From IMG/VR virus record IMGVR_UViG_3300028797_000632, positions 1-23,973 of that record: DNA of 23,973 nucleotides. The stretch is one strand, 5' to 3'. A model generated the notes under the pieces. It saw only the letters and a program-made list of their open reading frames with translations, ran no database searches and had not been told where the DNA came from. This DNA is from a virus. Made by a program: the position numbers and the translations under genes. Shown here piece after piece: positions 1-23,973 of this stretch (position 1 is its first letter; each line of letters begins with the position of its first letter).

Positions 1-644
1 ATTTCCAACGGATATGATGCATTTCTGCTTCTTGTGGGTTTGGAAGCTGCTATTGTCTGACCAATTCCTTTAATATCCCACAAATCTGAGAACCATACGT
101 TGCGCTCTTCCCAAAAATATGCACTCTTTTGCCGCAATTCTTTTTCTCGTCCGCTAAATGTTCGTTTACCACCCTTGCGGAATATCAGAATATATTCATG
201 TTCATAGGTAACATAAGCACCAGCTGGGTACATTCCTGACCCCATGAATTTATTCGGTGAATTTGTTTGTTTGCGCCAGTGAATATCTGGTAACACGCTA
301 TATCCCATAGCAGAGAAATATTCTATTACTTTTGCGTGATTAGGATATAACTGAAAGTTACTATCAATTGTTCTTGTAGCATCACCAATGTTAATACAAA
401 CAAATCCACCAGATTTTAACACTCTATCACACTCTTCCCATACGCTATTTAATATATTATGCATATGGATAAACGCTTCGTAGCCGTTGCCAGAATACAA
501 TAATTCTTTTGTTGTTGTATCCCATATTGCATCCCACATTTCTATCATCGGATATGGTGGCGAAGTTACAATTAAGTCAACAGATTCATCGGTGATATTC
601 GACAAAAAATTACTATTGCCAATAATTACTTTATGTGTAGTCAT
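1..644 (-). CDS. DNA methyltransferase, N6-adenine/N4-cytosine family, beta class (motif IV SPPY near the N-terminus); C-terminus lies beyond the window edge
   Basis: Reverse-strand translation from the ATG at 644..642 gives MTTHKVIIGNSNFLSNITDESVDLIVTSPPYPMIEMWD...KSGGFVCINIGD... with no stop before position 1. SPPY is catalytic motif IV of amino-MTases. The start overlaps the dUTPase stop (TAATG). The ORF track omits it because it is open at the window edge. Confidence 0.75.
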   Translation of the reverse strand, partial: MTTHKVIIGNSNFLSNITDESVDLIVTSPPYPMIEMWDAIWDTTTKELLYSGNGYEAFIHMHNILNSVWEECDRVLKSGGFVCINIGDATRTIDSNFQLYPNHAKVIEYFSAMGYSVLPDIHWRKQTNSPNKFMGSGMYPAGAYVTYEHEYILIFRKGGKRTFSGREKELRQKSAYFWEERNVWFSDLWDIKGIGQTIAASKPTRSRNASYPLE

Positions 645-1090
645 TATTTTACTCCAGTAGAACCAAAACCACCGGCGCCTCGACTCGTTGTATTAAGCTT
701 CTTCACTTCATTAAACTCAACCTCAAGGTACGGAATGATAACAAGCTGTGCAATTCTTTCGTTCGGCGTAATAAATCTGGACGTATCAGAATCGTTGTGA
801 AGTGCAACTATAATTTCGCCACGATAATCTTGATCCACACATCCTACACAGTTCGCCGGTCTCAGTCCTTCCCTCGCCGCTAAACCAGATCGAGCGAATA
901 TTGCACCAAAATAGCCATCCGGAATAGCCATGGCCAATGCTGTGCCAATCTTTTTTGTTTCGCCAGGTTTAATCTCAATAAAATCTGCATCAACAATATT
1001 TGCGTACAAATCATATCCGGCAGATTCTTTGCTGCCACGAATAGGAACTTTTGCGGTGTCATCAAGTTTTCTAAAATTAATTGTTACCAT
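644..1090 (-). CDS. dut: dUTP pyrophosphatase (dUTPase)
   Basis: The protein MVTINFRKLDDTAKVPIRGSKESAGYDLYA...RSGLA...GVIDQDYRGEI...GGFGSTG carries the canonical dUTPase motifs. The real start is the internal Met of the track ORF, preceded by AAGGAGAAAAAGCACC-ATG. Confidence 0.9.
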   Translation of the reverse strand: MVTINFRKLDDTAKVPIRGSKESAGYDLYANIVDADFIEIKPGETKKIGTALAMAIPDGYFGAIFARSGLAAREGLRPANCVGCVDQDYRGEIIVALHNDSDTSRFITPNERIAQLVIIPYLEVEFNEVKKLNTTSRGAGGFGSTGVK

Positions 1091-1526
1091 GGTGCTTTTT
1101 CTCCTTATGATGAAATTTTGCATGATGTTCTCTAACATGTTTTAATATTTTTTTACGAACCAATTTTTCCATCTCGTTGTGATAATTCGTCACTACTTTC
1201 TCGTACACAAGATTGTCGTGGCGAGCATCTGGATCATAAAACGGTATGTATATATCACCGCCATTACAGGTAACAGATACTATTGTATTACTCATGTTTT
1301 CAACCCAGATTTTGAGTTCAACGTATGGTTGGCTAGTATCATCATATCTGTATAATATTTTATTATATTTGAGGTTGTTTCCTACCAGAGTGAAACCAGC
1401 TTTGGTGGCAACTCCAATAGGAACATCTGGATTAAATTCATAATTCTTCGGTTCTATCACGGATAATCTCCTTATCCTCACAAGGGACGTTCTGACCCCA
1501 CCAATATTGGCGATCTCTCGCATCAC
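1077..1526 (-). CDS. hypothetical protein, His/Lys-rich C-terminus
   Basis: 149-aa ORF with a GTG-ATG start and a 14-nt overlap with the dut start. No recognisable motifs. An overlapping 58-aa Cys-containing ORF (about 1438..1614, MPTIIAGPECNGCIYA...) in another frame makes the true start uncertain. Confidence 0.45.
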   Translation of the reverse strand: MMREIANIGGVRTSLVRIRRLSVIEPKNYEFNPDVPIGVATKAGFTLVGNNLKYNKILYRYDDTSQPYVELKIWVENMSNTIVSVTCNGGDIYIPFYDPDARHDNLVYEKVVTNYHNEMEKLVRKKILKHVREHHAKFHHKEKKHHGNN

Positions 1527-1616
1527 AGTAGACTCTAATACGCCCCTTGGTTTCTTCTTCTATAGTTGCATAAATACAACCGTTACATTCAGGGCCGGCA
1601 ATTATTGTTGGCATAA

Positions 1617-2096
1617 TTAATCATTCCATTCTTCATCTTCGGCGTTTGGAATATCATCGCTATCTTCCCAACAGCCATATTCTTCGTCGTAAGTTACAAT
1701 TACATCATCCACGGTTTCATCCACCATTGGTGTAGCATAGTATACCTCACAATCTGTCAGCATTGAGTCAAATTCTTCATAGGTTAAAATCTGGTTGGAA
1801 TAAGCATCACGTAAAGGGTACTTATACCAAGCTAACCTATATCCAGTTGGATGATAGACGAAATTTGGTTGATTATACTCTTCTTCGTCATTGCCCCAAT
1901 AGTATGGATAAAGACAAAACATTTTTGTTGTAACCCCTCCGCGAGAATTCACACGGGGGTTATCCTGGTCGTCTGCAATGCCATAATAATCACAACCGAT
2001 GTTATCTAAAAATTTACAAAATCTATCTTGCCATTGATCACGAGGGACTTCGTATGTCCCCCGCGAATGACCAAAAATAAGATTACCGAGTTCCAT
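1617..2096 (-). CDS. hypothetical protein with an acidic C-terminal tail
   Basis: 159-aa ORF with a TAA stop. The C-terminus is DEEYGCWEDSDDIPNAEDEEWND. No family recognised. Confidence 0.5.
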   Translation of the reverse strand: MELGNLIFGHSRGTYEVPRDQWQDRFCKFLDNIGCDYYGIADDQDNPRVNSRGGVTTKMFCLYPYYWGNDEEEYNQPNFVYHPTGYRLAWYKYPLRDAYSNQILTYEEFDSMLTDCEVYYATPMVDETVDDVIVTYDEEYGCWEDSDDIPNAEDEEWND

Positions 2097-2106
2097 TAAT
2101 TACTCC

Positions 2107-2433
2107 TTACTTGTCTCGTATGACATAAATATCACCAATTACATTTTCGAGTATATAACTGTTTAGAATTTCAGTCTTATTGTCTTTGTCTGTAATTTCA
2201 ATATAATATCTGTATTTATCTGGTTTGAAGTATGGGATTTTTGCAAACGCAATGAACGATGCAATAACGAAAATTATCGCAAGTATTGTACTAATAATCC
2301 TGTTTCTGGTTGATTGATCATCTAAGAATGCAGCCAAACACCAACAACCAAATATTATTGCAGCACAAATTGTAATTGCGCAAATCCAACCTTTAATACT
2401 GTTTTGAATCGGCAATGTTGCAAGTATTCTCAT
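2107..2433 (-). CDS. small integral membrane protein
   Basis: 108 aa with three hydrophobic segments (LATLPIQNSIKGWICAITICAAIIFGCWCLAAF, IISTILAIIFVIASFIAFA). Tightly coupled to the flanking genes. Confidence 0.55.
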   Translation of the reverse strand: MRILATLPIQNSIKGWICAITICAAIIFGCWCLAAFLDDQSTRNRIISTILAIIFVIASFIAFAKIPYFKPDKYRYYIEITDKDNKTEILNSYILENVIGDIYVIRDK

Positions 2434-22600: not shown

Positions 22601-22948
22601 TTATTCCTCCTTATACGGCCCAGGTAATGGCATCCATGCGATAATTTTATTGTATCCGTTCTCATGCCAATGGGCATTACCGTCAATATAATCAATGTCT
22701 GGTATATATTTATAGTTCCAATGCTCACCATTATATGAATTGATTTTTTTAGTAACGAGTACTCTAACCTTTTCTTTTGGCAATTTCTCACTGCAAGGTA
22801 TCCATTGTGACTCTGTAGCGGCATCATTGACATACGACAGAGCTAACTCAAGCCCTTCTACCTTTTCCCACTCACATCTCATATAGCGCATATTAATAGA
22901 TCCTTGAATGTAGTTTATCAAAGCATCAGCATCAATCAACCTTCCCAT
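22601..22948 (-). CDS. DUF551-like protein (MGRLIDADAL N-module)
   Basis: ...ESQWIPCSEKLPKEKVRVLV...IIAWMPLPGPYKEE. Confidence 0.6.
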   Translation of the reverse strand: MGRLIDADALINYIQGSINMRYMRCEWEKVEGLELALSYVNDAATESQWIPCSEKLPKEKVRVLVTKKINSYNGEHWNYKYIPDIDYIDGNAHWHENGYNKIIAWMPLPGPYKEE

Positions 22949-23138
22949 CCTTCTCCACCTCTGGTTCGTGACTCTCGATACTTGTTGAATACCATCTAAT
23001 ATGTCTCACAGGTATATGCCTGTTTGACCCATTGGTTAATCGCATCCAGAGTAGGTCGCACCCAAAACGAACCTCTGTCGCTTCAAATGTTTCCAAATAT
23101 CCATCCCACCATCTTACTGTTACAATGTTAATTTTCAT
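22932..23138 (-). CDS. hypothetical protein
   Basis: 68-aa ORF. Confidence 0.4.
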   Translation of the reverse strand: MKINIVTVRWWDGYLETFEATEVRFGCDLLWMRLTNGSNRHIPVRHIRWYSTSIESHEPEVEKDGKVD

Positions 23139-23298
23139 ATTTTCTCCTCTCTGTCTCTATGGTTGGCGAATTCTCTATCACCCTAATTATCTCATCAGAT
23201 GTCATGGTTGGTTTTGTTCTGTATCCATTCAGAATATCTGCCAAAGCACACAATCCCTTAATTGTTGTCACAAGAGCATCAGCATCAATCAGCCTCAT
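23131..23298 (-). CDS. stand-alone 'MRLIDADAL' module protein (56 aa; MRLIDADALVTTIKGLCALADILNGYRTKPTMTSDEIIRVIENSPTIETERRKYEN)
   Basis: Below the track size cutoff. SD plus ATG are present, and it is coupled to both neighbours. Confidence 0.45.
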
Positions 23299-23300
23299 TT

Positions 23301-23720
23301 TTATTCCCCCTCATACGGTTCAGGCAATACAGGCAATGGCATCCATGCGGTTACATTATCTTGCCGCCATGAAAAATTGTTATTTACAATCGAGAATCCT
23401 TTTGGATATCTCGTTGTTAGAATCGGATTGTAAAACATCTTTTCAACTGTTCCGTTTTTTCTGTACGCTAAATACTCGCCAAATTCTTCCGGTAACCTCT
23501 CGCTGCATGGTATCCACTTCATTTCTGGCTTTACTTCAGGCGCATCAAAAATATCGTGTTTAAACGCTGTCCGTTCTGCAAGGATTGCAGACCATATTCT
23601 CCACTCCTCAATTTTGGTTTCGTCATTTGCGATCTTTCCGACATACGCAAGTGCTTGTACTGCTTGTGCTTCTAAACCGCAAGCTTTTTCATAAAGTACT
23701 TCTCTATCTATCAGGCTCAT
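23301..23720 (-). CDS. DUF551-like protein (MSLIDREVL variant N-terminus)
   Basis: ...EMKWIPCSERLPEEFGEYLAYRK...NVTAWMPLPVLPEPYEGE. Confidence 0.6.
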   Translation of the reverse strand: MSLIDREVLYEKACGLEAQAVQALAYVGKIANDETKIEEWRIWSAILAERTAFKHDIFDAPEVKPEMKWIPCSERLPEEFGEYLAYRKNGTVEKMFYNPILTTRYPKGFSIVNNNFSWRQDNVTAWMPLPVLPEPYEGE

Positions 23721-23973
23721 CGGTTCTCCTTCCAGACATGTTTATGTATCATCCACTTCCCTATTTCCGTAACGATTGATAATAACAAGATATAAAAGCA
23801 ACCCAGTTTTCTTTTATCACATCAATCAGTCTGCTCATTGGTTCTCTTTTCCTTAATACATACCATAATATTCCAACAGTTTTTCCTTCAATTCAGCATG
23901 AGCCTTTGCACATGCGTATTCCAAATCAGAACTATAAACATAACACAGCGTCTGGTCTGTGCCGTCAGGATTG

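Follow-up and report, generated by a model that had tools for sequence, protein, structure and literature searches.

Phages from the gut and rumen have been described in which TAG, normally a stop codon, encodes glutamine (genetic code 15) and in which this code is used block-wise (bioRxiv 10.1101/2021.08.26.457843; PMC9523058; Mgcod preprint 10.1101/2022.06.29.495998). For two crAss-like phages, Peters et al. provided proteomic evidence that TAG is translated as Gln (PMC9523058). Borges et al. proposed a model in which TAG depletion is followed by acquisition of a suppressor tRNA, after which late and lysis genes are recoded while integrases stay in the standard code (10.1101/2021.08.26.457843). 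Accessory genes for RF2 or for an aminoacyl-tRNA synthetase (aaRS) accompany the code change in some code-15 phage clades only. Here, we analyzed 23,973 nucleotides of viral DNA (IMG/VR record IMGVR_UViG_3300028797_000632, positions 1 to 23,973; the whole stretch is hereafter called the window), which encode a tRNA with the anticodon CUA and two GIY-YIG endonuclease genes, HEG1 and HEG2, that are interrupted by in-frame TAG codons (Table 1). In our view, the window probably represents the early arm, written in the standard code, of a temperate phage lineage that reads TAG as glutamine in its late genes.

Amber codons are also read by the classical amber suppressors, such as supE tRNA-Gln and supF tRNA-Tyr of E. 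coli and psu tRNA-Ser of phage T4. Homing endonucleases can be subject to temporal control, as translation of I-TevI from the T4 td intron is confined to late infection. Two further systems are of relevance for the comparison: suppressor tRNAs associated with theta ribozymes, which resemble the ribozyme of hepatitis delta virus (HDV) (Kienbeck et al., PMC10879173), and the TGA-recoded Agate phages, for which Borges et al. report a recoded group I intron endonuclease within an early gene (10.1101/2021.08.26.457843).

Table 1 Positions of the features discussed in the text, in window coordinates.
Feature	Position	Strand	Details
Early arm in standard code	1..23973	-	All convincing genes on the minus strand
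tRNA, anticodon CUA (reads UAG)	6761..6851	-	ARAGORN; Rfam RF00005, 58.9 bits, E 1.3e-10
56-codon gene	7263..7433	-	TAG terminator 7263..7265
Intervening sequence (1.2 kb) carrying HEG1	9122..10321	-	Splits a ThyX-like gene (10322..10522 upstream, 8684..9121 downstream)
HEG1, GIY-YIG homing endonuclease gene	9272..10195	-	307 codons; in-frame TAG at codon 79 (9959..9961)
HEG2, SegE-like GIY-YIG endonuclease gene	13638..14921	-	427 codons; in-frame TAGs 14763..14765 and 14649..14651
DUF551 gene	22077..22598	-	Pfam DUF551; TAG terminator 22077..22079

Results

Two endonuclease genes use TAG within their reading frames

The window contains three internal TAG codons, one in HEG1 and two in HEG2, and these two genes are also the only ones in the window with an in-frame TAG inside a conserved domain. 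Both genes are free of TAA, TGA and frameshifts. In HEG1, the Pfam GIY-YIG domain (PF01541, 5e-13) spans residues 1-85 and runs across the TAG. Residues 2-93 align without a break to the catalytic domain of I-TevI (PDB 1MK0/1LN0; E 2.7e-9), with the TAG opposite a Lys; it follows the catalytic Glu and precedes the conserved Asn of the GYNI motif. A stop at codon 79 would therefore yield a product without this Asn and without the entire C-terminal region. In HEG2, the Pfam SegE_GIY-YIG match extends across both TAGs (residues 8-91; 3.3e-5, 24.5 bits at a gathering cut-off of 25 bits). This domain lies in frame with a C-terminal region of 316 codons, which may be separately translated from an ATG at 14588.

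Could these genes simply be decaying? Under ordinary codon bias combined with decay, TAG would be the rarest stop as in most bacteria, the endonucleases would be pseudogenes, and the tRNA would be unrelated to them, serving in counter-defence or as a spare. Two observations would suit this explanation: other related phage loci likewise have TAG as 4-5% of their terminators, and the trinucleotides TAG and CTA are under-represented on both strands of the window. However, TAG accounts for each of the three interruptions (P = 0.0045, based on triplet shares), and none of them lies outside the 734 endonuclease codons among 7518 (P = 9e-4). The chance of frames free of TAA and TGA amounts to ~1e-11 for HEG1 and ~1e-15 for HEG2. 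Moreover, the diverged HEG2 orthologue in L002 (45% identical over 426 residues) likewise keeps one open frame, without TAA, TGA or frameshift, and has two TAGs that do not coincide with those of HEG2, one being at codon 3, ahead of the conserved YVYC strand. The homologous endonucleases of relatives also have TAG as their only internal stop. On sequence grounds, TAG is a sense codon in HEG1 and HEG2, and pseudogene decay does not account for the pattern; we give hardly any credence to bias plus decay as an explanation of the locus.

HEG1 lies within an intervening sequence that interrupts a ThyX-like gene. The two ThyX-like open reading frames (ORFs) match adjacent, exactly abutting halves of an uninterrupted 181-aa paralogue (L012 16992..17537). 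The break falls inside the motif WVxxH/xxRH (the slash marks the break), where a TAA directly follows the last codon of the upstream ORF, that for His, and an ATG opens the downstream one. Rfam returned no group I intron at E <= 1 (9.5 kb) or at E <= 10 (1.3 kb), and a long ORF inside an intron can defeat this model. At the junction deduced from the protein alignment, the last nucleotide of the insert is not the G that the splice-site rule for group I introns would require. Both an intron and a split gene are possible.

A tRNA(CUA) with a long variable arm

The initial annotation regarded amber avoidance as typical of a genome with its own UAG suppressor, and a tRNA with a CUA anticodon is indeed located inside the window (Table 1). 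It is the single tRNA detected there by both ARAGORN and Rfam. The tRNA lacks an encoded CCA and combines G73 with an A1-U72 pair, a G2-U71 pair and a variable arm of ~22 nt. In an alignment of 8 homologues, 13 of 26 pairs show compensatory changes, which occur in all four stems as well as in the variable arm and support the cloverleaf. The next gene starts with an ATG (6725) 35 nt past the tRNA 3' end; its Shine-Dalgarno sequence is located in the AT-rich spacer between the two. A promoter and terminator scan around the tRNA gave results no better than those for shuffled sequences.

An exact-pattern scan of IMG/VR for the window tRNA gave no match, and a JGI metagenome scan returned only a contig already found. 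A looser anticodon-arm pattern retrieved 14 long-arm tRNA(CUA) genes from IMG/VR, which form two groups. Group A includes the window tRNA together with a copy in L022 (88% identical) and one in L024 (97% identical); L024 and L031 are the same contig, referred to as L031 below. Group B derives from contigs of 25-30% GC that are heavily recoded. These contigs served as positive control for the gene caller, with coding coverage rising from 0.51-0.69 to 0.78-0.90 when TAG was treated as sense (gain 0.2-0.4).

The two group A phages are otherwise dissimilar to the window, the exception being the GIY-YIG gene of L031 (36% amino-acid identity; 7.2 kb of L031 compared). In L031, the tRNA has a large ORF with 3 TAGs on one side and the TAG-containing GIY-YIG gene on the other, and another large ORF, with 11 TAGs, lies upstream. 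Judging from position and size, we take the ORFs with 11 and 3 TAGs to be the putative terminase and portal, respectively; Pfam confirmed neither. L022 is mostly in standard code, and the HNH endonuclease gene directly after its tRNA contains 3 to 5 TAGs. The tRNA family thus co-occurs with demonstrably recoded genes, which further argues against decay next to an unrelated tRNA.

Two side observations concern the surroundings of these tRNAs. First, a TAG-containing endonuclease gene immediately 3' of the tRNA is present in two of the three phages with this tRNA type, namely GIY-YIG in L031 (region 6805..7194) and HNH in L022 (region 1155..2223), which hints at joint movement of tRNA and endonuclease. 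Second, low-GC contigs of IMG/VR contain a second, short tRNA(CUA) of 73-75 nt in addition to the long-arm tRNA(CUA). The two genes are 5 nt apart in six contigs (L017, L020, L021, L026, L027 and L030) and ~1 kb apart in L023 and L025. They are two structurally different amber decoders per phage. Heavy TAG recoding was shown for three of the low-GC contigs, L026, L027 and L029.

Homing endonucleases that depend on TAG might be co-mobile with the long-variable-arm tRNA(CUA), the two forming a "recoding cassette". This idea arises because the window tRNA is 97% identical to that of L031, whose only other similarity to the window, over the 7.2 kb compared, is the GIY-YIG endonuclease. We regard it as quite unlikely. 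If it were true, and endonuclease-driven homing spread the suppressor tRNA, selfish elements would seed genetic-code change.

Syntenic relatives are recoded in their late arms

A contig 100% identical to window 1..12096 extends beyond the window start. There it encodes, in this order, a methyltransferase, an integrase, a tRNA-like fragment and a convergent SPOR-domain cell-wall protein. Through homologues of the SPOR protein we reached four syntenic relatives, L032, L033, L035 and L037. L032 belongs to a 49.6-kb contig and shows 87.7% nucleotide identity to window 1137..5676, and L033 belongs to a contig of 153.8 kb.

The late arms of the four relatives comprise genes for tail and baseplate, holin, endolysin and SPOR protein. 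Each late arm contains 25-34 in-frame TAGs in 8-12 genes, corresponding to ~1% of codons, and these TAGs fall inside Amidase_2, SPOR and Phage_holin_1 domains. With TAG as sense codon, the coding coverage of the relatives increased from 0.66-0.80 to 0.87-0.94, and TAG was already read as Q in the translations of these contigs made by the depositing pipelines. In the relatives' early arms (integrase, dUTPase and ribonucleotide reductase (RNR)), no in-frame TAG survived inspection, and TAG terminates 3 of 59 genes. Most apparent early-arm TAGs were rejected as N-terminal over-extensions by the TAG-as-sense caller. The suggestion of the initial annotation that the stop codon might be partially reassigned is borne out by the two endonuclease genes of the window and by the late genes of these four relatives. 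We infer from the relatives that the late genes of the window phage are recoded as well.

TAG is a rare terminator in the window and in related loci

Our census of terminators rests on 47 curated minus-strand genes, which cover 92% of the window: 26 end in TAA, 19 in TGA and two in TAG. The initial annotation had found all of about 45 minus-strand genes to end in TAA or TGA except the DUF551 gene 22077..22598, and had placed the other TAGs either within the two endonuclease genes or at the ends of ORFs shorter than 40 codons. The rarity of TAG, the DUF551 terminator and the three internal TAGs all held up on inspection, but a second TAG terminator, that of the 56-codon gene 7263..7433, had been overlooked. 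The TAG of the DUF551 gene is a true terminator, because the 99%-identical orthologue in L002 has a TAA at the equivalent codon; read-through would add 6 codons and produce an in-frame fusion to the next ORF. The 56-codon gene was also called by an independent pipeline on the identical contig (L007 4664..4834). Its coding score is comparable to those of neighbouring small genes, and read-through of its TAG would add 15 codons.

How unusual two TAGs among 47 terminators are depends on the reference. Relative to the off-frame share of TAG triplets (16.5%), the count is low (P(<=2 of 47) = 0.011). TAG is also ~3.5-fold rarer in the window than in Clostridia loci from metagenome-assembled genomes (MAGs) selected by their RNR, which are a weak proxy for the host family (19/119 = 16%; Fisher P = 0.04). 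When the window and the early arms of the relatives are pooled, the difference becomes 5/106 versus 19/119 (P = 0.008). By contrast, the count does not differ significantly from an assumed usage of 5-7%, and it equals that of other related phage loci (5/105, about 5%; Fisher P = 1.0). The depletion of TAG is real but modest, not specific to this genome and not diagnostic by itself. As related loci that were not shown to carry a tRNA(CUA) use TAG terminators at the same 4-5%, this scarcity is not in itself evidence for recoding. It probably predates recoding, in line with the proposal by Borges et al.

A code-aware comparison of coding density had been suggested as well. In the window it gave no rise: coverage was 0.906 with code 11 and 0.908 with TAG as sense, a gain of 0.002. 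This negligible change is as expected of an early arm. Regarding accessories of a code change, Pfam gave no match to RF2 or aaRS among the genes of the window, as called on contigs that are identical or near-identical to it.

The amino acid inserted at TAG

To the TAGs of the relatives we could align 32 residues, of which 14 are Q and six are K. Each other residue occurs at most twice; there is no Y or L and there are only 2 S. At two TAG positions of L032, the SPOR protein of the window phage itself has an aligned Gln. As judged from these alignments, TAG in the late genes of the lineage most likely stands for glutamine (genetic code 15), and the window tRNA(CUA) would then be charged with Gln.

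Some features of the tRNA would suit another amino acid. A tRNA of the Gln type would have a class I short variable loop, U1-A72 and G73, and of these the window tRNA has G73 only, combined with A1-U72 and an arm of ~22 nt. Bacterial tRNAs with long variable arms are those for Ser, Tyr and Leu. The discriminator G73 is Ser-like, and the anticodon arm GCAGA-CUCUAAA-UCUGU resembles what we take to be the bacterial tRNA-Tyr arm with G34 changed to C. Furthermore, the endonuclease TAGs of the window align with K (HEG1) and with H and I (HEG2). Taken at face value, these features would point to a long-arm tRNA that reads TAG as Ser, Tyr or Leu, or ambiguously. However, Q dominates among the aligned residues, whereas Y, L and S are absent or rare. 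In addition, L022 has the same tRNA type, and the TAG in its PhoH gene aligns with a conserved, invariant Gln of PDB 3B85. Pairwise similarity of the window tRNA to Ser, Leu, Gln and Tyr tRNAs was uninformative for the isotype. We consider a non-Gln decoding of TAG unlikely.

Evidence against a recoded late arm

Several observations weigh against assigning the window to a lineage with glutamine at TAG in its late genes. Two of them are the residues aligned with the endonuclease TAGs, none of which is Q, and the long variable arm, as known tRNA-Gln lacks such an arm. The others bear on recoding as such. The pieces of L032 and L033 that were scanned contained no tRNA(CUA) (the relatives' pieces span 12-21 kb), and the link between the window tRNA and the recoding of the relatives is for this reason indirect. 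The sole late-gene piece of the window phage comprises 185 residues of the SPOR protein. It lacks TAG and has CAA, that is Gln, where L032 has TAG. TAG is still in use as a genuine terminator at two sites of the window, and related loci for which no tRNA(CUA) has been shown have equally few TAG terminators.

The TAG-free SPOR fragment and the two retained terminators would also be compatible with an intermediate that precedes recoding, i.e., a standard-code phage that has acquired a suppressor tRNA, carries TAG only in its selfish endonucleases and has unrecoded late genes. L022 comes close to this description, as it has an 88%-identical tRNA, is mostly in standard code and carries its TAGs mainly in the HNH endonuclease gene. 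Standard-code relatives with acquired suppressor tRNAs are also described by Borges et al. On the other hand, all four syntenic relatives with a visible late arm are heavily recoded, one of them at 88% nucleotide identity to the window. The weight of this argument is lessened by a statement in that preprint, namely that the code can differ between phages at over 90% average nucleotide identity (bioRxiv 10.1101/2021.08.26.457843). We consider such an intermediate unlikely, with a small but real chance of being correct, and favour a lineage that uses TAG as glutamine in its late genes.

Gene content, exchange and host

The window has a GC content of 38%. Among the products encoded are an array of DUF551 paralogues, an MVP-shoulder protein, an NAD-dependent DNA ligase, a thymidylate-synthase-like protein, a nucleoside deoxyribosyltransferase, an RNR with a TSCPD domain and a dUTPase. 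A megablast search of the whole window against the INPHARED phages gave no match. When ten window proteins were compared with PHROGs, nine remained without function, one of them being the C-terminal 316 aa of HEG2, and the tenth matched families of unknown function only.

On the identical contig, ~2.5 kb beyond the window start, a fragment resembling the T-arm and acceptor 3' end of a tRNA (GGTCGGGGGTTCGAATCCTCTAGCAC) directly follows the gene for the 411-aa integrase (L007 ~14590..14650). It was not called as a tRNA by ARAGORN and is probably the core of an attachment site (att).

One protein of 811 aa (window 15253..17688, minus strand) contains a Pfam MVP_shoulder domain (major vault protein shoulder) at residues 490-607 (E 4.6e-16). 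By tblastn, its only matches in deposited phages were three records of huge phages (462 and 735 kb) at 33-35%; relatives in IMG/VR matched at 35% and 59%. The protein had no match in PHROGs, nor did it find one when used to scan genome contigs.

The DUF551-type paralogue array (window 18484..23720, minus strand) is characterized by a repeated N-terminal motif, MRLIDADAL, in genes that start at 23298, 22948, 22598, 19732 and 19218. The contigs of several assemblies end within this array. A 1.4-kb DUF551 module (window 22472..23851) is 98.9% identical to part of a 39-kb ENA contig (L001, L012 and L015), which represents a standard-code temperate phage of 50% GC. This near-identity points to recent mosaic exchange between phages with different codes. 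We also considered the ENA contig as a source for the late genes of the window phage and rejected it, as the module is all that the two have in common; it was retained as a comparator.

The RNR of the phage (window 2443..4710, minus strand) has its nearest cellular homologues at 58-62% amino-acid identity. These are divided between MAGs of the Lachnospiraceae type from rumen and gut and Methanomassiliicoccales archaea. Scanning genome contigs with the RNR returned cellular homologues only (<=62% identity; one partial match at 73%) and no prophage. The host of the window phage is probably a member of the Clostridia.

Discussion

Our analysis suggests how a phage of this lineage might use two codes during one infection. 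The early genes, i.e., those for nucleotide metabolism and the integrase just beyond the window start, would be readable by the normal decoding of the host. As the tRNA(CUA) is co-oriented with these genes, it would be made before the late proteins are needed. The late genes for tail, holin and endolysin would then use TAG as a sense codon, most likely for glutamine. Since TAG would become readable in this way, it would be almost unused as a terminator. Because in-frame TAGs interrupt HEG1 and HEG2, their full-length products would have to await an active suppressor tRNA, a timing predicted from the gene sequences.

Such an arrangement is of interest in several respects. It would be a Firmicute-type temperate case of a two-code phage life cycle, with the decoding tRNA encoded in the early arm. 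Within this arm, sense TAGs occur only in homing endonucleases, which fits the idea of recoding as a timer for potentially harmful proteins. For annotation, it is of practical importance that standard-code gene calling splits HEG1 and HEG2 (one public pipeline gave fragments of 78 and 196 aa) and would shatter the late genes of the lineage. The tRNA family with long variable arm, A1-U72 and G73 is common to unrelated recoded phages. It offers a testable candidate for a TAG decoder in hosts that probably have no matching synthetase specificity.

How does the locus compare with the systems known so far? With classical amber suppressors, the tRNA shares a CUA anticodon that reads UAG in an otherwise standard-code host. 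Unlike these, it is not a point mutant of a cellular tRNA but belongs to a natural, conserved and horizontally spread family of phage genes, and its mix of identity elements (A1-U72, G73 and long arm) has no clean match in supE, supF or psu. It also differs from the suppressor tRNAs associated with theta ribozymes, as we found no HDV-like or other self-cleaving ribozyme abutting it with the models of Rfam, among which the theta model itself may be absent.

For HEG1, the T4 td intron with I-TevI (PDB 1MK0, 1LN0) is a close parallel: the GIY-YIG domains are homologous, and in both cases the insert resides in a gene for thymidylate synthesis at a conserved motif. In contrast to T4, the target is ThyX-like rather than ThyA (td), and an intron is only putative. 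Gating would be achieved by an amber codon and a suppressor tRNA instead of RNA structure and late promoters. The Agate phages share with the window a homing endonuclease within an early, otherwise standard-code gene as the bearer of a reassigned stop, and with it a predicted delay until the code switch. Here, however, the codon is TAG rather than TGA, Rfam revealed no group I ribozyme core, and a second, free-standing GIY-YIG gene is recoded, too.

The code-15 phages are the nearest match overall. They differ in that the window has two TAG terminators, no RF2 or aaRS gene and a tRNA with a long variable arm, and in that recoding of the window phage's late genes is deduced from its relatives only. 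The agreements are a phage-encoded tRNA(CUA), standard code in early and replication genes and in the integrase, structural and lysis genes of the lineage with in-frame TAGs that align most often with Gln, TAG as a rare terminator, an origin from animal gut or rumen and a lysis cassette of the Firmicute type. Taken together, the system is of the already known kind of phage code switch described by Borges et al. and Peters et al., and the long variable arm of its tRNA is the one unusual detail.

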